In this document: in pieces, positions 1-16,104 of the stretch
Position numbering within the stretch: the first letter of the stretch is position 1
Layout of the letters: every line of letters begins with the position of its first letter
Assembly: GCA_000146045.2 (NCBI GenBank)
Contig: BK006948.2
Location: 384,001-448,000 of the forward strand
DNA length: 64,000 nt
Source of the DNA: TPA_inf: Saccharomyces
Taxonomy: Eukaryota
Direction: 5' to 3'
Notes under the pieces: generated by a model
Databases searched by the model: none
Told to the model about the DNA's origin: nothing
The model's input: the letters and a program-made list of their open reading frames with translations, nothing else
Made by a program: the position numbers and the translations under genes

Positions 1-420
1 TCTAAGCTGGTATGTGTTCAGTCTTGGTAAAGACGGAGGAATCAAATTGTTTATTGTCACCGGCCTTGCAATATGTGGGCCCGCAGTATTTGGAACATCC
101 TCACACAATGCTCCTATATTAACAGAATTTCTTCTTCCAGAAAGATCTGTAAGTGAGCCAGTTCTGCTCTCATAACCAGGCTCTTCAAGTGTTGCAATCT
201 TTGGGAGCTGAATTTGCGGTAGAGTCACATTCGAAGCAACTACCGAAATTGTATGCAAATCAGCCTTGTTCTCCTCTTTAATAAACCCTACAGGAGGGCT
301 TGGCACGAAAGCGGTATCCGTCATTTTTTTTGGCTTTGTACTGTCTCTTGTCATTGAATGGGAAGCTAAAATAGGTTGAAAATTAAAAGGATGATTGTCC
401 ATTTTTATTTGCATTAACAT
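1..420 (-). CDS. CIN5: bZIP (YAP-family) transcription factor CIN5/YAP4, N-terminal ~140 codons; the 3' part lies beyond the window start
   Basis: The reverse complement of 1-420 translates to MLMQIKMDNHPFNFQPILASHSMTRDSTKPKKMTDTAFVPSPPVGF..., which I recognise as the Cin5 N-terminus. The start codon is the reverse complement of 418-420. Confidence 0.8.
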   Translation of the reverse strand, partial: MLMQIKMDNHPFNFQPILASHSMTRDSTKPKKMTDTAFVPSPPVGFIKEENKADLHTISVVASNVTLPQIQLPKIATLEEPGYESRTGSLTDLSGRRNSVNIGALCEDVPNTAGPHIARPVTINNLIPPSLPRLNTYQLR

Positions 421-2824
421 TTGAGTAGGTTTTTGGTTTTCCTTCTTGTTCCAAGCTGTTATTCTATATCTATGATGAGATTAACGGCTGCAAAAAGTCG
501 TAGTTAATCAGTAAAATTATCTAATGAATTATTTGTAAGCAGAATGCGTGAGAAAAAATAAATCACCCAGTTCCTTTTTTATATACATGAACTTTGGTAA
601 TGATGCAGACATCAACTAGTTCTCGAGTGAGGAGGTATCCTTATCAAATCACTCTCTCCCTAGTATTGAAAGGGTTTTACTCGCCTTCTGCTCCTAGTTA
701 CGATTTTTGCCTAGTACTCCTTCCTACCCTCTTCCTCATAGATTTAATGCCAATAAAATTTTCTTTGCATGTCACCATTGGGATCGGTGAGGCAACTCCG
801 GTTCCGATTTTTTTTTTTTCAGCGCCGTGGTATTTCCGCTCGGGAAATCCCCTCCCGCATTGCGTCAGAGCTTATCGATGTAAAGTTAATTTCCCTTTTT
901 TTCGGTTGGGCTGGAGCACTTGGTTGCATTACTAACAAATTAACGAACAATAGTTTTAAAAGCAAGTGCCTTAAGATTTAGGTCATTCCTTCGAGGATTT
1001 CTGGGAACAATTTAAAGAATAACAGAAACTTTTGCGGCCCTTTTCATCATCTACGTGTTTTGTAAGAATGAGATCACATTCCACGTAGCCCTAAACATTG
1101 GCGTACATTTCCACTCGGAACCTTTTCTCGACCCCTCTCCGTACGCCAAGTTTTACCTTGAGGAGTAAGTCGTCAAAGGGGCGTGGGGCAGCCATTTCTT
1201 AGGAGGTGGGAAGACATGGCAGTGAGTGGGCCCTATGATTGCTGCTGCAGGGGACTTTTCAGGATAATCATGTAAACGATAAAACGGAAAAACAAAACTA
1301 CGGACGTTGTTACCTTTCCATTTTGAAATGTTTCTCCGAAAAAATACCATTTTGCACAGTTCAACATTCTTGATGGCAAAAGCGAAGCATTGCGTCAACG
1401 GGTTAGATAAGTCATTTACTGTCAATTAGTACCAATACCTGTCTTTGCTCACCGAATGGCACTATACAGTGACGTTAAGATCTTGTAGTTGTTTTTCAAG
1501 AAGGCACTAAATAAGGTAATATATGGTGCCTTTCGCAATGACTCGTGTATCTGGCAGATCTATAGCTGCACACCTGATTTTTTTGCTATATTTGAATCAG
1601 GAGTAAGTTTGAACCATAATCATTCCAATTCAGTTTGATAGTACCTTTTTTTTAAAATTTTTGAAAGAGCTATCGCTTAGCTATCGGCGGGCATATTGAA
1701 TTGCGCAGTAGATGAACATTTCACTAGTTGTGGCCAAAGAAGTTAGTTAAAAAGTGTAAATATGTCACAGTACTTATCCTTCTCTAAAGAATTAGTTTAT
1801 TAAAAGCAGCAACAAGAAGAATGACTGTCAACCATTTTTAGGTCATTGCAACAAATCTCAAAATACGCTTTTATAGATAATCTAAGAAGATCGTTATATG
1901 GGAATACTAACAGTGAGAAAATGGAAGAAACGGGTTAGCGTAGAAAATTGTAATTAAAAAACAACAGTTTTAAGAAGGTGGTGGGCAATTAATACTTGAG
2001 GATTAATACTTAGAGCTTATTCAAAAAGAAAAGATAGAATTTCATGTAATACATGAGAACAATGTAAGGTTTTTAAGGTAACGAGTAACTAAGTTTTGAA
2101 ATATCTTCACTAGCCTTGCAATCATCTTTTAGCTTTTCTATTTGCCGGATTCTTTACAACATAATCACGCTTTCTTCTAGTTGTAATTTTCCTTCTAGAT
2201 GTCATTATTTCAACCGATGTCATTAATATCCTTTTATGGTGTTTACAAAAAGAAAGTTTCAAGTACCGCTCACCTACACTACGTTGTAATTCTTAGATAC
2301 ATAACTTTAGTTTTGTCGCCTATGTGCACAGATAAACAAAACAACCTATAAAATTTCCGTTGGGCCCTTTTGTCCCTGATTTCTGGTGTGTAACCCATTT
2401 ATTTCTGTCCTGTAATAATTCGTCTTCGGTGATTGCCATATATACACAGTTTAGCTTTACTAACTATAAACATCCGAGAAGAAGAAAAAAGAAGGTCTGA
2501 TTTCTATCAAACAACATGTGAAGATAACACAATCGATGTGATTGATATCAGATTTACTAGCCCCGTTGGATTGAAAAATCTGCAAGGAAGGGCTAAAGAG
2601 CAATATACTTTCTTTTGTTGTTTCGGGGTGATGAGAAAATTGTAACTTTTTTTTTTAACTTGGCGAGAAAATTGACTGGAAGAAGTGTCAAAGATAAGGC
2701 TTCTATCATATTCAAAACAAGTACCACCAAATGGCAGCTCAACTCCGAAGGCTCAAAAACAATACTTATTGATATTGCACTCACAAGCATTTTTTGTTGC
2801 GGAACGTCTTTACGTGCAAGATTA

Positions 2825-4684
2825 ATGATCATAAGATTGCATTTTTACTACCTCCTCACTTTAGTTTACCATTTAGGACTTGTAGGTGCGTATGAAAAAG
2901 CAGCAAGAAAGAGAATTCAACCTCCCGATTTGATACCTGGTCCTCCGGGACATAAACTTGGTGATGAAAGACCACCGCATTACGACCACCGGCCACCTTA
3001 TAAAAAACACATCGACAACATTCCAGCTTACAATCTGACTGATTTGATAGATGATAAACTACTAAATAAATATGAAAACTCATGCACGGTAAATGTATTG
3101 ACAGGTGGCTTCATCTCTCTAGCAAGTAATTCGTGGCACTTACGTGCTTATAATTACACTTTAAATTACCCATCCTTTTTGATCCGATGCGATAATGGCA
3201 GTGCAAATCCTAATTTCTCTCATGTCTTACAAGACTTTGTTTATGACATCAACAACAAATTCAACGTTCAAGATGACAGTAGTAAATACATCGGAAAAGA
3301 CCCATTTCCCTTAGGAATGATAATGATCACCTTTGCTTCTGGGTGTATCTGTGTGGCAACATGGATGCTATTTTTGGTTGTCTTATTACTGCCATCCGAT
3401 AATCATAATAGAAGAAATAAAGTTGTACATGTTTACGTCCTTTTCTCTGCGATTATAAGAACTGTATTTCTAAACGAGACTATAGCCGTCATATTTGACA
3501 GCCAATATCACGATGACTACCAGGATGCGAGCCAATTTGAATCGTTCATCGTAGAAACTGCACCATATAAAATATGTGAATTAGTTGCAAATATTTTGAG
3601 TGATATAAACTGGATTTATATTGTTCACTACTTACAGTCCAATTATGGAAAACCAACTTGGAATTGGATCCCATTTAAAATGAAAAAGGGGACACATATC
3701 ATAATTACCGTGGGTTGCTTCCTCTCACTAGCCGATAACATTTTATTCGCAAACCTTCTTTGGAGAAAGAACCTTGTAGTTTTGAAGGTATTTTACAAGC
3801 TAATCGAATTACTGATTTACACAATTTTCATCTCCATTATTTGTTACTTCACATGGCATAATTTTGCTTACATACTTTTACCGAAAACTGCTGAAATTAA
3901 TACGGACGGTAAGTGTAAAACGAAATTGAGAATTCTTTGGGAAAATTATCACGAAACTATACCATTATTGGCGTATAATATTCTTATATTTATTTTATTC
4001 TATTTCACCACAATTTTTTTCGCTGCTTTCACCAAACATGTTAGAGGTTGGACATTTAACTTTGTTCATCTTTTGAAAGTTTTAATAACAGTGAACGTTT
4101 GGGGCTTAATTGGAGTATTGGAAAAGAGGGAGCTGCACATAAGCAAAAAAACAGTCCTTGGACGAAAAATTAACAATAGGGACAAATTTTTCGCCAATCC
4201 AACAGTCAATTATTACGGAGAAGATTTAGGCAAGCATTTAAGCGCCATAACGTTAAACAGGGATTTAAACACTACTAAAAGTAACACTACTTCCCACGAT
4301 TCATCAAGTTTAGTAGGATCCCCTTCACCCACCTGGAAATCTCCAATCGAAAGAATAAGGGACAGAAGAAGAAGACATAAGATAATGAAAAGTGAGAATA
4401 AATTTGGGCAAAATCCCAGTTTTGGAAGTAAATCGAATGGCAAACCTAATACTAAAACGACATTATCCAAATATCGACAGCTATTAAGGAAGCCTAGGCG
4501 AAAAACCAATTCATATGAACCAAAAAATGGCATTGGACAGAATAAAGAAGGCTCAACTGTTAGACCAGGAGCCGACAAACATATTAGAGATTCCAATTAT
4601 CTAGCTACAGACATCAGTGACAACGAAAGTATGGAAACCGAACTTCGAACCAACCACATTTATAATTACGAAAATAGTGATTAA
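2825..4684 (+). CDS. DFG16: 7-TM membrane protein of the Rim101 pH-response pathway (619 aa using the second in-frame ATG of ORF 2615..4684)
   Basis: The translation is multi-pass hydrophobic and matches Dfg16. Starting at the ATG at 2825 gives a length of 619 aa. It sits next to CRS5 and HMS1, as in the reference. Confidence 0.85.
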   Translation: MIIRLHFYYLLTLVYHLGLVGAYEKAARKRIQPPDLIPGPPGHKLGDERPPHYDHRPPYKKHIDNIPAYNLTDLIDDKLLNKYENSCTVNVLTGGFISLASNSWHLRAYNYTLNYPSFLIRCDNGSANPNFSHVLQDFVYDINNKFNVQDDSSKYIGKDPFPLGMIMITFASGCICVATWMLFLVVLLLPSDNHNRRNKVVHVYVLFSAIIRTVFLNETIAVIFDSQYHDDYQDASQFESFIVETAPYKICELVANILSDINWIYIVHYLQSNYGKPTWNWIPFKMKKGTHIIITVGCFLSLADNILFANLLWRKNLVVLKVFYKLIELLIYTIFISIICYFTWHNFAYILLPKTAEINTDGKCKTKLRILWENYHETIPLLAYNILIFILFYFTTIFFAAFTKHVRGWTFNFVHLLKVLITVNVWGLIGVLEKRELHISKKTVLGRKINNRDKFFANPTVNYYGEDLGKHLSAITLNRDLNTTKSNTTSHDSSSLVGSPSPTWKSPIERIRDRRRRHKIMKSENKFGQNPSFGSKSNGKPNTKTTLSKYRQLLRKPRRKTNSYEPKNGIGQNKEGSTVRPGADKHIRDSNYLATDISDNESMETELRTNHIYNYENSD

Positions 4685-5037
4685 GGCAGGCCCAGTGGAC
4701 GAAAAGACATAACTGCAGAAGTACAGCTGCCTTTATTTCTTGTGGTCATTTATTGCTTTTATTTTCAAGTCAGATATACAAGAAAATCAAATCCCATCGT
4801 CAACGTCACGTATAAACGATTAATTTACAGTAATACCATACTCTACCAACATTATTTTAGTCCGACGTTCAGTCCTGTAGGTGTTCCAAATCCTTCTGGC
4901 ATTGACTTCTGTGCAGAAACCCTTCAAAATGAGTTCCACTTTACGTCAGATCGCATAACAACCGGTCATATATTTTTTTCTTTTGCTAAACCCCCTACTG
5001 CAAGCACTTTTAAGAAAAAGAACAATAAATGCGTCTT

Positions 5038-5046
5038 TATTGCTGT
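5038..5046 (+). promoter_or_regulatory. Candidate Ace1 copper-response element (TATTGCTGT, matching THNNGCTGD) about 170 bp upstream of the CRS5 ATG
   Basis: Motif seen in the sequence. CRS5 is known to be Ace1/copper regulated through a GCTG-core site. Confidence 0.3.
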
Positions 5047-5212
5047 GTGGAAGTGATTTTTGTCTTTCGGACAAAAAAAGGATAGGGATGCGAGAGGGCT
5101 GTGAAGTAGTGATCAAGCGGGGCCTATATAAGAAGGGCGCACATCGTCCCCCCTAAGAATAGCGAAGCGATATTACACTGAACACTACAATGTCAAATAG
5201 TACTCAATAAAT

Positions 5213-5422
5213 ATGACTGTAAAAATATGTGACTGTTAAGGCGAATGTTGTAAGGACTCTTGTCATTGTGGGAGCACCTGCCTTCCAAGCTGTTCTGGCG
5301 GTGAAAAGTGCAAATGTGATCACAGCACCGGAAGCCCTCAATGTAAGAGTTGTGGTGAAAAATGCAAATGCGAAACCACGTGCACTTGTGAAAAGAGTAA
5401 ATGCAATTGTGAAAAATGTTAG
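5213..5422 (+). pseudogene. CRS5: CRS5 copper metallothionein reading frame interrupted by an in-frame TAA at codon 9 (5237-5239). The frame otherwise encodes the full 69-aa Cys-rich protein.
   Basis: ATG at 5213, then MTVKICDC*GECCKDSCHCGSTCLPSCSGGEKCKCDHSTGSPQCKSCGEKCKCETTCTCEKSKCNCEKC*. The reference protein as I recall it has Glu (GAA) at position 9. TATA (tatataag) is at 5125-5132 and an Ace1-like element at 5038-5046. Confidence 0.8.
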
Positions 5423-5770
5423 GTGACCCCTACTCTTTACTTATCATAAATACATCATCATATTTTACCCTTAATTAACAACATTTATTTAACTGCATGA
5501 ACTAAATATAAGGTATAGTTTCTTTTTCCCGGAATCTTTTTTTTAGATCGTTATTATTTAGACGGCACTAAGAGAAATAAATTAAACTAAATTACGGTGC
5601 GGAGCTCAAGGCATCTGCGAGTGTTTACTAACACTAAAAGAGATGAATAAAATAGATTTCTCAATGCAAAATTAAAATTACAATGTTACGCATACACACA
5701 AGTACAGATTTGTATATAGTATTTCTTCTTCGTTTTATCTGTCGTGTTGAAACATTTTGTTGTTCAAGTA

Positions 5771-7075
5771 TTAAAAGTCTCCTGCGTTGTTAAAATCCAT
5801 ATCATGTGAATTGTTGGTGCCGCTCATGAGGCCGTTTTGATGTGGAATATTATATTGAATGTTATGCAATGGTTGTTGTTGTCGTGGCTGCCGCTGCCGT
5901 TGGCGTTGGCAGCTTCTGGTTTGCTTTTGTACTTGTTCACTACTACTGTTGTCACTCAACGGTTGAGATGGCTCGGTAAGATGGACGAAAGAATCCCGTG
6001 TGTCATTTGATAAATGTTGATTAGCCAAGCTTAGCTGTAGGCACTTTCTTTCTAAATGACAAATATATTCAATAGATTTCGTTAAAATGGACGCCTTATT
6101 CAATTTTGTTGCTGGCTCTAGGCCATCTAAGTCTGCTAGGTCTCTAGATGTAATGGGAAGATCGTTACATTTTTTATACGCTACTCGTAGCGTTGGGACA
6201 GTTCTCCTTAATTGTTCAATTTTATCATTAATATTGGAACGGTATTTCTTTTCAATTATATTGTGTGATACCCTTCCTGTCCTCACCCTTGTTATTCTTT
6301 TGGGTTTAACATGAAAATGTTTCCGTATAGGTGAAGTTTTTAACTTGAAGCTCATACTGTCAGCATTGTCAATATTCTCCAAATTCAAAGATGATTTAAT
6401 CTCGTCTGCAGTAACTAAGGGAGACTCTGTCTTCGATAAAGGCAAAAAATTTTCAAAGCCAGACAATTGTTCCTTTTTCACGATTGAAGCTGCTGAAAGA
6501 AGACTCGAGTCCTTTTCAGATTTAAGATCGGTTTGCTTTACATTATCAATGTTTTCATTTTCCTCGCTACTAAAGACTTCCATGTTATCAATGTATTCTT
6601 CGCTGTCAATAGTATTGCCATTGTCTGTAGTCATTGTAGTACTACCCGTCGTTGTTGTAGGTATAGAAGCCAGAGCATCATTATAGTAATTACTATCAAT
6701 TACTGGAGTGTGGCCTGAAGTATTAGGAAACGAGGAGTCACTATACTGGTCTGTGGCAGAATATGTGTTGTTCTTATATACAGGAGGCACGGGAGGTTGA
6801 AGATGGATGGGATGCTGAAATGGAGCGTAATAAGCATGCGTCGGAGGTCCTTGAGAACCCAAATCCTCGGTATTGTAATTTGGTGGCGGCACGTTGTAAT
6901 TGTTACTTTGAAACATTAAATACATTTGGTTCGTGGTTACATTTACATTCTGCTCTTCGCTGCCATCTTGAGCACTTCTACAATCAAAAACCTTGATGGC
7001 GACTTTATTACCTAGGTCGTTCATTACAGAATTGCCATCCGAAGAACCAGAAAAAGGTTTTTGAAAATTTGGCAT
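5771..7075 (-). CDS. HMS1: bHLH (myc-family) transcription factor; 434 aa if started at the third codon (Met) of ORF 5771..7081
   Basis: Contains the bHLH segment HNIIEKKYRSNINDKIEQLRRTVPTLR and a QRQRQRQPRQQQ tail. Length and position match HMS1. Confidence 0.85.
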   Translation of the reverse strand: MPNFQKPFSGSSDGNSVMNDLGNKVAIKVFDCRSAQDGSEEQNVNVTTNQMYLMFQSNNYNVPPPNYNTEDLGSQGPPTHAYYAPFQHPIHLQPPVPPVYKNNTYSATDQYSDSSFPNTSGHTPVIDSNYYNDALASIPTTTTGSTTMTTDNGNTIDSEEYIDNMEVFSSEENENIDNVKQTDLKSEKDSSLLSAASIVKKEQLSGFENFLPLSKTESPLVTADEIKSSLNLENIDNADSMSFKLKTSPIRKHFHVKPKRITRVRTGRVSHNIIEKKYRSNINDKIEQLRRTVPTLRVAYKKCNDLPITSRDLADLDGLEPATKLNKASILTKSIEYICHLERKCLQLSLANQHLSNDTRDSFVHLTEPSQPLSDNSSSEQVQKQTRSCQRQRQRQPRQQQPLHNIQYNIPHQNGLMSGTNNSHDMDFNNAGDF

Positions 7076-8175
7076 TTCCAATTTATACTCTTATCGTTGC
7101 TAAAATGAGTCGTGTACTGCAACTGCTCTATATTCTATATTCTAAGCGAATGGGTGGGTGGGTGTGACTAACTATTAAACTACCTAAGCGATCTCGAGAG
7201 CCAAGGCGAGTAGTAGAAATAAAACTAGAAGCGCGCTTTACAGGTTTGACCTTAAGTATGATGCGATAAGACACTTACATAGGACGATTTTTGAGGCTTA
7301 CAATGTGTAACCAAGGTATATAAAAGGTGCTGCTGCTCTTGGGAAAAATACAAAGAAAACGCCTACGGTAAAAATACAATACCAGCTATTTTTTTCTTTT
7401 GAGAAGCCCACTCAAAGTAAAAATTAAACAATGATGGAAAAGAACGGAAAAAAGTTCAAACAGAAAATTAAAATACAGCAGAGAAGACTAGGCACAACAA
7501 AGTGGGATTGTGTCTACGCTTTTAACGGTGTACCCTTTTTCCTCGCCACGTTTTCACTCAGATCTAAATCTCTGCTGTAATTTACAGCGGCATAAGAAGG
7601 CACGTCCCCTGAAAGTAGGCTAGCCAGAAAACAAAAAGGCCAGAATCGGCGCGGAACTTCTCGTATCGAGAGCAAATGAGGGGTGCGGCACACAGTAGGA
7701 AAGGGTAACTGATTAACATACGTACACCCCGGCATAAAAGCTTCTGCAGGCTTTGTAGGCAAGAGACACTGCGGAGAATAAAAGGTTGTGACGCCCAATA
7801 CCTTCGCCGGACTCCTTCTTGGCGTTCACAAAAGACGATGCTGCAGCATTTTTTTCTTGCGTCGAACTCGCGCCCACAGCAACGAGACGGTTCCGTTCCT
7901 TCCCGTAATGTTGCTTTGATTAACAAAATTCTCGTTTCCTCAGTTCTGTGAGCCCGTTTGTCAGCAGAGGAATCCCAATGAAGAAAATTTTTTCTGGAAA
8001 GTAAAAGCGAGCGAAAAGTTTAAGGTTCAGATTGCATCACTATTCGTTCAGTTGATAGCGAATGTAGACCGCTAGCGGCTTGATTAGATAAATAGAGTGG
8101 GTTAAAAAAAAGGAAAAAAAAAATGTGAATTGCACATGCCCAGCGCGCTCGCAAAACATATAAAGTTGTCCTCAC

Positions 8176-8376
8176 ATGCGGCGTGCATTGTTCATAGCGG
8201 GGCAAACATACTTGTGGCTTAATTTGACACATCTACTTTTAATCTTTTCTTGGTCTAGTACAATGGCTTTTTCCCAAAGTAGAAGGCTTCTTACTCCAAC
8301 CGTACCCTGTCCTACTTTACTGGGCATTGATTTTTTAATTCTTGTCTTGAGGCATTTCGACGAGATTTTCATTTGA
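8176..8376 (+). CDS. Small 66-aa ORF in the HMS1-EXO1 intergenic region (corresponds to the small annotated ORF YOR032W-A as I recall it). Coding status uncertain.
   Basis: ORF track only. Hydrophobic and low complexity. Confidence 0.2.
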   Translation: MRRALFIAGQTYLWLNLTHLLLIFSWSSTMAFSQSRRLLTPTVPCPTLLGIDFLILVLRHFDEIFI

Positions 8377-8415
8377 AAAATATACCTCCGATATGAAACG
8401 TGCAGTACTTAACTT

Positions 8416-10524
8416 TTATTTACCTTTATAAACAAATTGGGAAAGCAAGGAGATAGATCTGACTGCCGGCCGAGCTTGGCTTGACTTAGTAGTTTCGATG
8501 TCCCTTTTCTTACTTTCCTCATGCAAAATTGGTGATGAATTGAATGATTTTCGTTCATCTACGCTTTTCATGTCAATCACAATTCTCTGTGACCTGGCAC
8601 CAATAAGGCTTTTTCGCAGTGATGGCCTTTGCGTGATTTGATTTTTACCATCGTTATCGTCGCAATCATCATCTCTATTTTGATTGACGTATACCATTCC
8701 TCTACTTTTTTGATTAACGTGCCGAGGAAATAGTGGTTGTCTATTTGCATTAACTCCGCTGAATGAAGATGAATATCTAAACTTTTGTAAAACTTTTGTG
8801 CACCCCGATATACTCCTCTGGGATGACCCGGGAAATGAGGTGGTGCTGCTCGTGGGAACTCTTGATTCCGCAGTTTCGCTATAATCCTCGCTAGTATCGC
8901 CATCACCGTCATCATCTGTATTATAGATTTCGTTACCGATAGTCTTTCCTTCAGAATTCTTTCGGTCCTCTTCAATGTCACTGACAACTTCAGAAACCTC
9001 TTCACTCAGGTTGTCGTCATCCTCTAAATTGGTTGTAATAAAAGAACTAGGTATTTGTGTAGATAGTTGAGACTCGGAAACAGGCTCTTCCAAAGATTGT
9101 GAGTTTGTGTCCTCTTTAAAATCCTGTATGCTGTCGCCTTTTTCTTTGAAGTTTTCCACAACAGTCATGGAGGGTTTATTAAAAAATTTGCTTCTTGTAT
9201 CCTTCAACGTTTCTTGGACTACATTGGCATTACTTAATTTCCTACGCTTAATTGCCATTGTCAGTTTGTCTTCCGCTTGTCTTAGACTATGGATGTTATT
9301 TGCAACTTTTGGGTTATGATCCAATTTTGTCATTTTTTGGAAGAACGATTCTATTGGTTTGACTTTGGCTTCAGAATTAGTAGTATTAGTTTTCCCGAAC
9401 TCTATATTTGACTTGGATGCCAGCTGTAATTTGTGCTCTCTGTTGGCTAGAGGTTGGTGAAAATCATATGGATTCAAGTCACCTTGAGCAATTTTTAAAT
9501 GCAAGTGGTGATCTATATCGTCGTCGAAATGAACAATTTGCTTTTTCTGAGTTTCTCTGTGTATGACAAAACCAATGCACGCGTAGAGTCTTTTTCTTTT
9601 ACTTTCGGTATCTTTCAAGTACAGCGGAATTTCATTCAAGCTCACTATTTTCTTCCGAATAGGGCAAAATACCCTTTGGAATTGAAATGCTAAAACTGCA
9701 GCTTCATATTCATTAATGTATGTGTCTGGTATCATCAGTTTTCCCTCCCGCTGTATACTCAGAATTATCCTTTCAATAGTATTGAATCTTCTAACTAATT
9801 TCATTGCGGTAATCAGGCCAACCTTGGGAATTCCATTTGTATAGTCACAACCGGATAAACAAACCATTGTTATGATTTCTTCATTAGTTAAGGATCCCAA
9901 CGGAAACTTTTTAGGCAGTTTAATAAAATTATCGCGACATATTTCTAAACATTCTCCATAATCATTCAGCTTCGTAATGAGACGTCGACATCCGAAGACG
10001 AGGAGGTCAGAATCTTCGGATATTATTCCTTGCACAATGTTTTTCTGTTCTAAATATACCATTTGAGAGTCAGCCTCAAACGGAGCCACTATGTACCGAA
10101 TACCGTTTAGCTTACAGTAGCATATGATACATTTTGCCATTTCAGGCGTTATGTCGACACATTTTTGAAAATAGTCCATAGCATTTTTCTTTTCGCCACA
10201 GGCCCACAGTCTTTCAGCTATGGCTTTGTTTTCTTTTCTCTTATCCCTTCTTTTAGATTCAGTAGACTTTTTAACTGGAATGGCATCACCATCGAAGACC
10301 AAATACGGTTCAACTTTAAAGGTTTTCAATAAACTAAATCTTTTTATGAAAAACTGCAGGTACTTATCAGTTGGTTTTCCCATTGCAAGTTCATAAGCAC
10401 AAGAGCAGGCTGCTCTATGTAGCCATGCATAGCCATCAATGGCTAACACTTCTCCTTCATACCTACGTAGTGATACTGGATTCTGTATGGGCTTTAACTG
10501 AGGAAGAAGACCTTGGATACCCAT
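8416..10524 (-). CDS. EXO1: 5'-3' exonuclease / flap endonuclease of the Rad2/XPG family (702 aa)
   Basis: The N-terminus MGIQGLLPQLKPIQNPVSLRRYEGEVLAIDGYAWLHRA is the XPG-N domain. The length of 702 aa matches Exo1. Confidence 0.95.
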   Translation of the reverse strand: MGIQGLLPQLKPIQNPVSLRRYEGEVLAIDGYAWLHRAACSCAYELAMGKPTDKYLQFFIKRFSLLKTFKVEPYLVFDGDAIPVKKSTESKRRDKRKENKAIAERLWACGEKKNAMDYFQKCVDITPEMAKCIICYCKLNGIRYIVAPFEADSQMVYLEQKNIVQGIISEDSDLLVFGCRRLITKLNDYGECLEICRDNFIKLPKKFPLGSLTNEEIITMVCLSGCDYTNGIPKVGLITAMKLVRRFNTIERIILSIQREGKLMIPDTYINEYEAAVLAFQFQRVFCPIRKKIVSLNEIPLYLKDTESKRKRLYACIGFVIHRETQKKQIVHFDDDIDHHLHLKIAQGDLNPYDFHQPLANREHKLQLASKSNIEFGKTNTTNSEAKVKPIESFFQKMTKLDHNPKVANNIHSLRQAEDKLTMAIKRRKLSNANVVQETLKDTRSKFFNKPSMTVVENFKEKGDSIQDFKEDTNSQSLEEPVSESQLSTQIPSSFITTNLEDDDNLSEEVSEVVSDIEEDRKNSEGKTIGNEIYNTDDDGDGDTSEDYSETAESRVPTSSTTSFPGSSQRSISGCTKVLQKFRYSSSFSGVNANRQPLFPRHVNQKSRGMVYVNQNRDDDCDDNDGKNQITQRPSLRKSLIGARSQRIVIDMKSVDERKSFNSSPILHEESKKRDIETTKSSQARPAVRSISLLSQFVYKGK

Positions 10525-10772
10525 TCCTTTCTACGCCTTTCAGTTTTTTCGAGCTCCTTTTATTTTAATGTGGTCCAAAAAGCAATATCAAATATAATTC
10601 TATGAGAGCATATAGATATACCTGAAGGAGCAAGGACCTGATATTTTTTGTTAAGGTTTTTTTACACGGGCCAGTAATACAAATTTCTCGAAAGATCCTT
10701 TTGCCTTCTATCAATCACGCAAATTTTTGTTGTGCACAAAACTAGTTATTGTACTTCCCGCCTTTGCTAAAG

Positions 10773-10778
10773 ACGCGT
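10773..10778 (+). promoter_or_regulatory. MCB (MluI cell-cycle box, ACGCGT) about 250 bp upstream of the EXO1 ATG, in the EXO1/AKR2 intergenic region
   Basis: Exact ACGCGT hexamer. EXO1 is a known G1/S MBF-regulated gene. Confidence 0.4.
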
Positions 10779-10836
10779 AAGAAAAAAAAGTACAAATAAT
10801 GCCCTATAAAGAAAAAAATTTAAATAAAACGCGAAC

Positions 10837-13086
10837 TTAGTTTGGACGTAATACTTCTCCTTCTCGGGCCGGATATTCGTATAGCTCGTAGTAGTCAACC
10901 TCAGTTCCACCCAACATAGCTTTTGAAGTATCCGAAGAATAGAAAAATCGTTGCCACAAGGGCGCTGTTACATCACTATTAAGCCAAAAATCCGTCAAAT
11001 TCGTCTTCCAGTGATTTGTCACTAAGAAACTTCGAAGCAATGAACTGTGATGTTGTTGTGGAACCTGTCCATGCAAAATGTGGGTTATACCTACTATTTC
11101 CTTAATAGTAACGAGCCATTGATTAATACCCATCATTGAAAAGCAAGCGCTAAGAATGGCGCGGCGCCTATTTCTTGGTTCCAAACCATCAATAGAAATT
11201 GTGTGAGTAATGGTGGTCGCACTTGGACCTTCAGGAATCATATCACTATCTTCAACACCTTTACTTTCACTGGTATATATAGAGTTTTCGAAGGGTATCA
11301 GATTGATAAATTTTGCCTTGTGCTCCTCCTTGATTAAGATGAACAATTCAGGAGTCGTGATTCCTTTTAATATCTGGAAGAACTGGACAATCAACATAGC
11401 CCCCAGCCAGATGAAGTTTACGCTAATCCAAATGAATAAAAAAAAGGTAGAGGGATCGTAATTAGAACCCTTACACAAAGTCTCATTCTTGAGCAGGGCA
11501 CATCTTGCATATTCTTCAACTTGTTCGTAAATATAGTTCGTTTTCTTAAAATATGCCAGACATAACCACATGAACAAAAACATGTGATATTGGACCGTCA
11601 CAGCAAAGAAGACAAAAAGTTTGTGATTTTTTAAGCCAACATCATTATAAATCCATGGACAATAATGGTCATATCTGGCCACCAGGGCGCCGCTAAAGAA
11701 AGAATATTTACTCCTCAAAGGCTTCCTTTCTAATGTCTCAACACAAAAGTTTTCCCTATCAAACTTCCCTAAGTCAATCAGTTGTTTTATTGTTTCTTGT
11801 ATCGAAGTCAAACTATCATCCGTTTTCAGACAACCAGGATCTGACCGTACTAATCTCAGAAATAGTACAACTGTGAGAAAGGAAGTAACCAAAAACTGGA
11901 CGTTTTTCATGGTATAGTCAGATACACTATATGGATAGAGTTTCTTCGTCCATATATATATTAAAAAACAGAAAGTGGACAGAAAGAGGCCACTGAAAAA
12001 GGGAGTTCTAGTCAAAGAAACTTTGTAAGTGTTTTTTCTGGGAAGGCATGGTAATACAAACTTCTTTAATGTGTTGACCATGACAACAGTGACCAGTAGG
12101 GAAAGCATAATGGCTAGCACTGGAGAAAGAACGAGAGAAATTAAGTATATGTAAACCATGAGTAAAAATGGTGACAAAAAAATTGTGAATTGTGCATGCG
12201 AGCTTTTCTTGAACAGTTTGTCTTTCTGATTTCCAAGCCTGTCATATCCATGATGTTGCAACGCTTGTTCAAAAAGTGATTTGGTTCCCATTCCTTCGGC
12301 TAGATCAAAACAGTCTTGCTTCTGGTTATTCCTTTCGTAGAAATTTGCACCGCTAAGTATTAAGTCACATATGACCCTTTGATCACCTCCAACTAGAGCA
12401 CAATGGAGAGCATTGAACCCTCTGTTGTCCGTCCATGCAACTGTGGAGCCAAATTTCAATAAAAGTTCTACAGTGAGAAAATCTCCTTGATAAGCAGCCC
12501 AAAGTAGGGGTGTTCTGTTATTGTTATCTTTTGAATCGATATCGACGTTGTCATTGTTGTTTACGACAAAATAAAGAACATAAACAACAAGTAAAATGTT
12601 AGAACTGTAAACGCTAAAATGCATGATGTTAAGACCCTGCTCATCTTTGAGCGTCGGATCAGCGCCATGTTTGAGAAGCAGGTCAACAATGTAGATATTA
12701 CCGTACCTTGCGGCCCAGTGCAAAGCAGTAGCCCCTCCGGGGCCTGCCGCCTGGTTAGGATTTGCTCCCCTAAGTAATAGGAACTTTGCTACAGAAAACC
12801 TATTGTTTATACAGGCCCAGTGTAAGCCGGATAATTCATCAATGCGGTCGTTATTAATATCCACTGCTCCACTTTCGACCACGTCCTTCACCACTTTTAA
12901 ATCCCCATCCTTAGCGGCTTCAATGAAAATATCAACCACATATTCAGTGTTGGATCCATCGCCTAGAAGTTGCGCTTTGTTATTGTCCGAATCACTTACA
13001 GCGTGTTGAGCCACATCAGTGACAACAGCTGCCCCATTAGAAGTTTTTTTCACGTTCTCATCATCAATAATTGACATACTGGTCAT
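10837..13086 (-). CDS. AKR2: Ankyrin-repeat palmitoyltransferase with a DHYC variant of the DHHC motif (749 aa)
   Basis: N-terminal ankyrin repeats, multiple TM segments, and [12 protein letters not shown]. Length 749 aa and position between EXO1 and SHE4. Confidence 0.9.
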
Positions 13087-13425
13087 AAGAAACAGTAGAG
13101 TATTTCACAGGTAATTAAGATGTTTATCTGACCGATGAACTTTACAACTTGCTAGTAAAAAGTTGGTGGAGTTCAGTTATTATTAAATGAAAAATGCAAA
13201 GTTTTGACGCTTTCTAATTGTAAACGACAAAGTGAATGATAAAAAGATCGCTGAACGAAAGATGATTCCAAATACTCAAAAATAGCAGCCATACAAACTG
13301 GAACTACTAAATTCAACTAAGATTAAGCGATTAAGAAGTCAGGCTCGTTTAACAACAAGCTTGGTACATCCCAGGCTGCACGAAGTCGTAACTTAAAAAA
13401 AAATAAAGAAGCGAAAAAGAGAAGA

Positions 13426-13668
13426 TCATTTCCTTTGGCATCTATTGTTTGCGAAGCCATCGGACCGAGGCACCTTTGAAAAAAAAAAAAAGGAGCACTT
13501 TCTTCCTTTTTCTCTCACCCAGATTCTTTTAGAACACGTAGGGTACCAGACATAATTTAGAGTAGTGTGATACTTCTGGTGTAAAAATAGAACAAAATAT
13601 ATAAAGGGCACCACTACCAGAGGATATTCTCTGGCTACGAAAATCTTACATAGTTCTTGTGTGTTCAT
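13426..13668 (-). CDS. Small 80-aa ORF between AKR2 and SHE4 (corresponds to YOR034C-A as I recall it). Coding status uncertain.
   Basis: ORF track only. Confidence 0.2.
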   Translation of the reverse strand: MNTQELCKIFVAREYPLVVVPFIYFVLFLHQKYHTTLNYVWYPTCSKRIWVREKGRKCSFFFFSKVPRSDGFANNRCQRK

Positions 13669-13734
13669 TATCAGGGTGCTGTTGTATTTCTTAGTGAAAA
13701 TTAAGAAGAGTTAAACATGGCGATTCTTTCCATA

Positions 13735-16104
13735 TTAGACTTTAATTTTAGCAAGGATAACGGGAATTGCCGCTGAAAACTCTGGTCCTGAATCGCCTCT
13801 CTTTAAAGACATATTTAAAGCATCCTTTAATTTTTGATTTTCTTGCAGCAACGGATACACCTCGTTAGTGCCATTATCCGGTATCACTTCGAATAATCCA
13901 AAAAAAAGCATAAGTAACCTTTGTCTTAACTCAATGTCATCAATTTGATCCGCAAATACCTGAATAGCATTTTCGATTAGTTCTTTCTTGGTTAACAGTT
14001 CCTTAGCTATCAATGGAATCGTGGTGGCAATGTTAGCAAAGATAGCAGCCACTGCTCGTTGAGACTCAACGTCGGATAACTGAAGAAGTTTCACCAATAT
14101 ATTAAAATTTCTCAAACTCTGAGGATTTTCCAAGTTAAAGAACTTAGCAGCAATCGTTAATGGATGACTCATCATATTACTTATGAGCTCTAATGTTGAT
14201 CTTTGCAAAGGAACGTTTTCGTCTAGCATCAGATTCTCAATCGTGGACCAATATACTTTTGTAGATACGATATGCTTGCAAACTTCTTCACCATCAGAGG
14301 TCTCCGATGATGCCAAGTTCGTCAGAGCTAATAGTGCCTCGTAATTGTCTGTCAGCTTTATTTGTTCGTCGTTATGTAACGGATTGTCATCCACTGGCGT
14401 AGACCTTGGCAACAATTCGAACAAGAAGGGGATAGCGTTTAATGCAGAGTATTTTTTAAATATCAAACCCGGATTAGTGAATATTAGCATTCTTGTTAAT
14501 GCCCGACACCCTAGAATCCGTATTGGCTCCCCTATGTCCTGCTTATTGGCCAAATATTCTAAGATGATAGTTGTACCACCTTGTGAAATGCATTGAGGAA
14601 TGAAGTTTTTCGAGCGGGTTATGTTATATATAACCCTAACCACTTGTTGTTTACAATTGGGGCTCAAATTGTGCATTTCCCTCTTCAAAAAGGAAATCAG
14701 CTCGGTCCTTAATATGTACTTTTCGTTAAACAAAAGAATATCTTCCTTTGATTCTTTCTCTGCGCCTACCTTGTCTGCGCCTGGGCCCTTCAAATCTGCG
14801 TAATTTTTTAAGTCATTGATAGACTGTGAACTACCATTGGATTCCTCTGGTAAAGTGGACAAATTTGCCATGATAACTAAGAGACCATATAAACAGTGCG
14901 TCATTTTCTGGCTTTTAATCATAGTTAATAGAATTTCAGTAAAGCTCTCGTTACTCCTAATCATAATCTTAACCGAGGCCTTTAGACTTAAATATGCCAG
15001 CGCTTCAACGGACATTTCAACTTTAGGAACCTCCTCGAGCTTAACCGCACTTTCATTGACATTTTCAATTTTTGGCATGATACGTCTTGAAATAGCGTTT
15101 ATAAAGATTTCGGACAGTTGCTTCAAGTTTATACACGTTAATTTTGTGAAAGACCATGTCTTAACTAACACCAATGCAGAATATATTTGTACATCTTCCA
15201 CGTTTAGTGATCTTTCCAATAGTTGAAGGTAATTTTCTGTAATATACGTTCTCATGGTCTCATCAATACACGCGGAAGATAATAACCGCAGCAGTTCTTT
15301 TGTAAACTGTAAATCCTGCTCTTCGAATACTCTCTTCTTAAAAAGCTTACTTAGTCCTTTGGTCAAAAATATTTCAGAACAAAGTGTTGTCAATGAAGGA
15401 TATAATTCTGATAGGGTTTTGACTATGATGGACAATGGATCATTTCCAACGTCTATTTCTGCCTCCACAATTAAGCTACTCATGAAATCGACCACTGCTT
15501 TATCAAAGTCTTTTTGGAAGCTTGATTGTAATTCAGCAAAAATTATAAGCATCATCGATTTTACTTCATCTTCGCTTATGCGCAAAATAAGTTCCTTCAC
15601 TAAAAATCGCACCTCCTTGAAATTGTACTTGAACTTATTCAATAGTTGTAGAATTATGCTCAGTAAATACGTGACGTGGGTGTCCTCGCCATAGTGTATC
15701 CTAATTTGCAGCTCATTTAACAATGCAATTGTTGCGTCTTTATTGGAAAAGCAACCAACGAAAACGTGGATGGATGATCTTGATAATATTTCAAATAAAT
15801 TGAGTGCGAAGGGAATATCATTCTGTATAAGTTTAGATAAATGTACGCGGGACTCAGAATGGTCTTGGTAAGACCTGGTCAATATTTCTTCGATTTTCTG
15901 ACGATCTTTAAGGGCTTCACTATTCGTTAAATCAGCCGGCATTTTCCCAGATTCAGATTTTTGCCTTAGCTGGAAAATTGTATTTATAGCATCATTGTAT
16001 TTTTGGACATCAGGGGTGGATTTCAAAGTCTTGTCAAATGCAGCGCAGAGGCTATCAATAGTAGAGCTATCGATTGGATCATTCCCTTTCTCACACAGTG
16101 GCAT
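13735..16104 (-). CDS. SHE4: UCS-domain myosin chaperone (789 aa)
   Basis: Length 789 aa, armadillo-like helical repeats, position upstream of and divergent to PEP12. Confidence 0.9.
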   Translation of the reverse strand: MPLCEKGNDPIDSSTIDSLCAAFDKTLKSTPDVQKYNDAINTIFQLRQKSESGKMPADLTNSEALKDRQKIEEILTRSYQDHSESRVHLSKLIQNDIPFALNLFEILSRSSIHVFVGCFSNKDATIALLNELQIRIHYGEDTHVTYLLSIILQLLNKFKYNFKEVRFLVKELILRISEDEVKSMMLIIFAELQSSFQKDFDKAVVDFMSSLIVEAEIDVGNDPLSIIVKTLSELYPSLTTLCSEIFLTKGLSKLFKKRVFEEQDLQFTKELLRLLSSACIDETMRTYITENYLQLLERSLNVEDVQIYSALVLVKTWSFTKLTCINLKQLSEIFINAISRRIMPKIENVNESAVKLEEVPKVEMSVEALAYLSLKASVKIMIRSNESFTEILLTMIKSQKMTHCLYGLLVIMANLSTLPEESNGSSQSINDLKNYADLKGPGADKVGAEKESKEDILLFNEKYILRTELISFLKREMHNLSPNCKQQVVRVIYNITRSKNFIPQCISQGGTTIILEYLANKQDIGEPIRILGCRALTRMLIFTNPGLIFKKYSALNAIPFLFELLPRSTPVDDNPLHNDEQIKLTDNYEALLALTNLASSETSDGEEVCKHIVSTKVYWSTIENLMLDENVPLQRSTLELISNMMSHPLTIAAKFFNLENPQSLRNFNILVKLLQLSDVESQRAVAAIFANIATTIPLIAKELLTKKELIENAIQVFADQIDDIELRQRLLMLFFGLFEVIPDNGTNEVYPLLQENQKLKDALNMSLKRGDSGPEFSAAIPVILAKIKV

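Follow-up and report, generated by a model that had tools for sequence, protein, structure and literature searches.

Known alleles of CRS5

In SGD the reference gene YOR031W of Saccharomyces cerevisiae S288C is a 'blocked reading frame', closed by a stop codon behind its eighth amino acid (bioRxiv 10.1101/737452), and the literature describes this stop as present in S288c and absent from other strains. Together with that of FLO8, the CRS5 stop belongs to the inactivating stop codons that are well documented for S288C, and it also occurs in the laboratory strains 74-D694 and G600 (PMC3240633); in the Peterhof strains, which were derived independently, neither the FLO8 nor the CRS5 stop of S288C is present (PMC4859572). 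The CRS5 stop is already known: the annotation of the reference genome includes it, and citations go back to 2011 or earlier. Many functional papers treat CRS5 as active in S288C-derived strains and leave the stop unmentioned; no mention of the codon-9 stop was found in recent functional and NMD literature on laboratory strains (PMC9674712, PMC13369610, PMC9813906), nor in a 2026 metallothionein paper and an NMD review. A cadmium overexpression study in CEN.PK leaves the CRS5 allele of that strain unstated, and a literature search on a premature stop in combination with metallothionein returned nothing.

The allele analysed in the present study lies in a 64-kb window (the whole stretch of DNA examined, 64,000 nucleotides) and almost certainly represents the null allele that S288C-type strains have in CRS5 (YOR031W), a metallothionein gene inducible by copper. 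Two matches connect it with S288C: the reading frame in the window stops after exactly eight amino acids, as in the published description of S288C YOR031W, and over 15,426 bp the window is identical to a contig of the unlabelled independent sequencing run SRR29240426. The absence of the stop in non-S288C strains, observed here as GAA in 18 loci, agrees with the literature as well. The initial annotation of this DNA, made from the sequence alone, had supposed that the TAA departs from an S288C reference with Glu at position 9; the literature gives TAA as the reference allele and Glu9 as the residue of other strains, and by the published S288C description a normal TAA in the reference, the case in which the annotation by its own account would be mistaken, is what is found.

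The CRS5 locus and its interrupted reading frame

The locus is S. cerevisiae CRS5/YOR031W, located between DFG16 and HMS1; this identity follows from a match to the Pfam family PF12809, from the PalH and HLH genes on its flanks and from the gene order on chromosome XV. The upstream neighbour encodes a PalH/RIM21-family membrane protein of 619 aa (DFG16/YOR030W, 2825..4684, plus strand), and the downstream neighbour encodes a bHLH protein of 434 aa (HMS1/YOR032C, 5771..7075, minus strand); both served as synteny anchors, and HMS1 was used as a handle to fetch the CRS5 loci of other strains and species. The order PalH, 69-aa metallothionein, HLH and XPG nuclease recurs in many S. cerevisiae chromosome XV assemblies. 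An ARAGORN search found no tRNA genes in the 64-kb window.

The CRS5 frame begins with an ATG at 5213-5215, is interrupted at codon 9 by TAA (5237-5239) and ends with its natural stop TAG at 5420-5422; the translation of 5213-5422 reads MTVKICDC, stop, GECCKDSCHCGSTCLPSCSGGEKCKCDHSTGSPQCKSCGEKCKCETTCTCEKSKCNCEKC, stop. The residual reading frame (5213..5239, plus strand) comprises the ATG and seven sense codons, followed by the premature TAA, while the remaining, untranslated part of the coding frame (5240..5422, plus strand) spans 60 codons, which include 17 of the 19 Cys, and the TAG. A search of the 60 residues behind the stop against PF12809 (Metallothi_Euk2) gave 77.1 bits (E-value 1.4e-21, profile positions 11-69 of 69), and the 69 residues with Glu9 restored gave 89.6 bits, the curated cutoff of the family being 27 bits. 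All 19 Cys codons of the conserved array (C-X-C and CC motifs) are present in the window frame, and codon 9 is the only place at which its coding sequence departs from the common intact allele of 69 residues and 19 Cys. What the TAA breaks is a real coding frame, not an ORF that arose by chance. By profile, Cys array and position the locus is a member of the Crs5-type metallothionein family; the uninterrupted ORF expected of such a metallothionein is lacking in the window, where codon 9 is TAA and no start follows in frame, and the window allele is a null.

Re-initiation would not be a credible route to a Crs5 protein, since no in-frame Met follows the TAA in the translation of 5213-5422, the ORF list contains no downstream in-frame ORF of at least 20 aa with an ATG, GTG or TTG start, and the near-cognate starts in frame after the TAA are AAG and one late ACG only. 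The initial annotation fares well on these points: the gene it had named as CRS5 is confirmed by the PF12809 match and the flanking DFG16 (PalH) and HMS1 (HLH), the TAA it had placed at codon 9 of an MTVKICDC-stop frame is there in the sequence and the translation, and the 77.1-bit match agrees with its view that the rest of the frame encodes the full Cys-rich metallothionein. Its statement that, with no downstream in-frame Met, only an eight-residue peptide is encoded holds for the translation and the ORF list, and the single G-to-T change that it had proposed at 5237 (GAA to TAA) is supported by every comparison allele, which has GAA.

An out-of-frame ORF of 65 aa with a GTG start overlaps CRS5 (5229..5426, plus strand). 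It is not a gene, though automated callers report it as one: the public collection has 395 blocks with this call, among them contigs with TAA as well as some metagenome contigs with GAA. Such calls are artefacts that arise when prokaryotic-style gene callers are run on yeast DNA. The protein of this ORF does not differ between the two CRS5 alleles because GTT and GTG both encode Val. The collection look-up contained no record of the allele-specific antisense ORF of 45 aa.

Promoter region

A candidate Ace1/Cup2 copper-response element, TTATTGCTGT, is located at 5037..5046 (plus strand), upstream of the ATG by 176 bp, and a TATA box, TATATAAG, is located at 5125..5132 (plus strand). Each falls in a block conserved between Saccharomyces species, with TATAAAG at the TATA box in most of them; among the upstream blocks of the five species compared, these are the best conserved. 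The Ace1/Cup2 consensus, which we take to be HTHNNGCTGD, has 43 matches in the window against 49 expected and is not enriched; the support for the site comes from its position and conservation, because the motif alone is too degenerate to be significant. A dependence of CRS5 on Cup2 has been described (PMC5234253). The promoter of the window allele is undamaged. A scan for sigma-70 promoters and terminators was set aside as not applicable to yeast.

The flanks of CRS5 vary to some extent among the alleles compared. Upstream, at 5116, haplotypes that do not differ elsewhere have either A or G; in the TATA region, at 5129, the window has TATATAAG and the four most divergent alleles (L001-L004) have TATAAAAG; a run of six C at 5141-5146, upstream of the ATG, is a run of five in some alleles; and a 3-bp indel (CAT) is found at 5453-5455, just past the CRS5 stop codon.

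CRS5 alleles of S. cerevisiae

Alleles for comparison were collected by four routes. The first used two variant Crs5 proteins from strains HN1, XXYS1 and EM14S01-3B, the most divergent alleles in the set; the second, ten chromosome XV assemblies whose HMS1 protein is the same as that of the window; the third, a metagenome scan with a DNA pattern left open (N) at the variable base, which gave one contig, with GAA; and the fourth, contigs on which the out-of-frame 65-aa ORF is called, which yielded the contig with TAA. The retrieval is partly biased, in that L001-L004 and L028 came to light through a protein that is intact or nearly so, and in that similar places were collapsed; all ten HMS1-matched assemblies have GAA, and S288C-like records may be among the similar places collapsed there. 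The protein search with the Glu9-restored Crs5 returned three variant proteins only (P0001 and P0002, from L001-L004, and P0003, from L028), and the canonical 69-aa Crs5 had no exact match in the protein collection.

Codon 9 is GAA in all 14 chromosome XV assemblies, including those of HN1, XXYS1 and EM14S01-3B, and likewise in the metagenome contigs L015, L017 and L018 and in a 629-bp scaffold (L028). Codon 9 is thus open in 18 of the 19 distinct S. cerevisiae loci, most of which encode the canonical 69-aa protein. The causal SNP is at 5237 (plus strand), where the window has T and the other, non-S288C-like S. cerevisiae loci have G (18/18), changing GAA (Glu) to TAA. Over the 610 bp of window positions 5013-5622, this position is the sole difference from five of the assembled loci (L005, L007, L009, L012 and L013), and the TAA haplotype carries no secondary lesions.

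Some of the other alleles have changes of their own. In HN1 (L001/L002) a metal-binding Cys of Crs5 is replaced (C33Y, ORF nt 98), and in XXYS1 and EM14S01-3B (L003/L004) two Cys are replaced (C44Y plus C69S, ORF nt 131 and 205); the Cys concerned are otherwise conserved across Saccharomyces, apart from Cys69, which is absent in S. uvarum. These Cys-losing alleles hint that, within S. cerevisiae, the constraint on Crs5 is relaxed or its metal binding altered. The 629-bp scaffold, from an ENA metagenome (ERZ28585547), has a 1-bp deletion in an A5 run (ORF nt 146-150), and its protein leaves the Crs5 frame behind residue 49 (GENANAK… in place of GEKCKC). This is either a second kind of damaged allele or, perhaps, an error in assembling the homopolymer.

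CRS5 in other Saccharomyces species and the origin of the stop

The syntenic CRS5 loci of four other Saccharomyces species were fetched through their HMS1 orthologues. The ORF is intact in all four, with 68-69 codons, and codon 9 is GAG in S. paradoxus, GAA in S. kudriavzevii and S. uvarum and AAA (Lys) in S. arboricola. The 19 Cys are conserved across the four species, with the exception of the C-terminal Cys in S. uvarum, and the pairwise dN/dS of CRS5 between species is 0.05-0.25, values that point to purifying selection between species. The S. uvarum protein (locus L024, 4250-4456, minus strand) has 68 aa and ends in …CTCDE, without the C-terminal Cys. In S. paradoxus CBS432 (L019, GCA_002079055.1) an intact orthologue of 69 codons occupies 4203-4409 (minus strand) with no gene called, and CRS5 appears to be unannotated in that record.

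The comparison indicates that the TAA is derived and arose by a recent, single G>T transversion: derived, because a sense codon stands at this place in 18 S. cerevisiae loci and in four species with an intact, constrained ORF, and recent, because the haplotype is free of any second difference.

Expected consequences of the stop codon

The most likely consequence, judged by the reading frame and its surroundings, would be a transcribed null allele giving an eight-residue peptide and at most a trace of readthrough product. The recent G>T transversion replaced the GAA (Glu) of codon 9 by TAA, and in all else the haplotype equals the common functional allele. Since the promoter is intact, with its Ace1/Cup2-type site and TATA box, CRS5 would still be transcribed and would remain copper-inducible; translation would end after MTVKICDC, with no metallothionein made beyond the readthrough trace, and at a low rate of readthrough only traces of full-length Crs5 would be expected in [psi-] cells. 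The loss of Crs5 would be tolerated because CUP1 dominates, carrying most of the copper buffering in S288C-derived strains; the 2026 metallothionein paper, citing Jensen 1996, describes such strains as typically having multiple CUP1 copies.

A variant of this scheme, in which the TAA allele is not fully silent, is doubtful: low readthrough, raised in [PSI+] cells and in NMD mutants, would provide a conditional Crs5, and the stop would be the cause of the reported NMD sensitivity of CRS5. The CRS5 mRNA does rise in NMD mutants, yet it is classed as an 'indirect' NMD target, a class that is not as predicted for a strong premature stop codon; the premature TAA lengthens the effective 3' UTR by only 183 nt, and this short extension may be the cause of a weak NMD sensitivity. 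If this variant were true, the reported regulation of CRS5 and the results of crs5 deletion in S288C-derived strains would be properties of a strain-specific nonsense allele.

Very unlikely is a functional readthrough of the TAA, programmed or [PSI+]-dependent, by which S288C-type strains would make useful amounts of full-length Crs5. Stop mutations of this kind have been discussed for [PSI+] strains sharing the CRS5 allele (PMC3240633), and readthrough is likewise increased, via Mg2+, in NMD mutants, in which CRS5 mRNA accumulates. The frame beyond the stop is undamaged, and since either Glu or Lys is accepted at position 9 in the species compared, a readthrough product with Gln, Tyr or Lys there would probably work; the stop itself, however, is not conserved, and the TAA is not a selected recoding site, because a sense codon is found there in every other strain and species examined. 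In yeast, UAA followed by G is an efficient terminator, CAR-YYA is a 3' motif that promotes readthrough, and basal readthrough of UAA in [psi-] cells is typically well below 1%. The TAA in the window is followed by GGC GAA, which does not match CAR-YYA, and is preceded by TGT, which is not A-rich; this UAA + G context is unfavourable for readthrough. A programmed recoding site was rejected on two grounds, the lack of conservation of the stop and a 3' context other than CAR-YYA.

Independent evidence for the stop codon

The TAA of the null allele was also found outside the window. It is present in contig SRR29240426_18 of a Logan assembly (run SRR29240426), whose alignment to window positions 1-15426 (15,426 bp) shows 0 mismatches and 0 gaps, and the look-up collapsed 21 further similar places under this contig; over the same span the GAA-bearing environmental contigs L026 and L027 are 99.2-99.4% identical to the window. 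The TAA is neither an error nor private to the window. No loxPsym sites were found within 3 mismatches in the 64-kb window, and the natural stop of CRS5 in the window is still TAG. In the Sc2.0 design, TAG stops are converted to TAA. An origin from an Sc2.0 synthetic chromosome was ruled out by the absence of loxPsym and the retained TAG.

That the TAA arose in this window alone, by faulty sequencing or assembly or by engineering, has next to no probability. At first sight the window does look like an outlier among the 14 chromosome XV assemblies, all with GAA, but the stop is described in four papers for S288C and related strains, and the contig identical over 15,426 bp, with its 21 similar places, would have to stem from the same erroneous record as the window, which is implausible for a read-level assembly; the missing loxPsym sites and the natural TAG, in place of an Sc2.0 TAA, speak against engineering. 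The initial annotation had left the choice between a loss-of-function allele and an error or engineered change; the former stands, and the latter is excluded by the TAA contig, the absence of loxPsym and the retained TAG. It is just as hard to believe that CRS5 is an old pseudogene, decaying or fixed across S. cerevisiae, and not a polymorphic null allele, for although the C33Y allele of HN1, the C44Y + C69S allele of XXYS1 and EM14S01-3B and the 1-bp deletion hint at weakened constraint within the species, the great majority of its loci (18/19) are open at codon 9 and mostly canonical, the TAA haplotype is clean and selection between species is purifying.

Comparison with known systems

As a discovery the CRS5 stop carries little weight, being already annotated in the reference genome; the finding is an ordinary one because the TAA is a documented S288C null allele and not a new mutation or an error. 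Its significance is that of a practical caveat: work on CRS5 in BY4741 and its S288C-derived relatives deals with a nonsense allele, and the codon-9 stop is to be weighed in deletion phenotypes, expression and NMD studies and comparisons with wild and wine strains.

The closest described counterpart is the 'blocked reading frame' YOR031W/CRS5 of S288C (SGD), with the same gene, stop position and flanks and with an open frame in other strains; it is this very feature, and judged by the published description it has no detectable difference from the window. Functional Crs5 (Culotta et al. 1994; PF12809) has the same coding sequence of 69 residues and 19 Cys except at codon 9, and the same Ace1/Cup2-type site, whereas the window allele encodes only MTVKICDC before the stop. 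The flo8 nonsense allele of S288C (FLO8/YER109C) is likewise a strain-specific premature stop in a non-essential gene of the reference strain; the loss of FLO8 has a conspicuous phenotype, with flocculation and filamentous growth lost, while the loss of CRS5 would be masked by CUP1.
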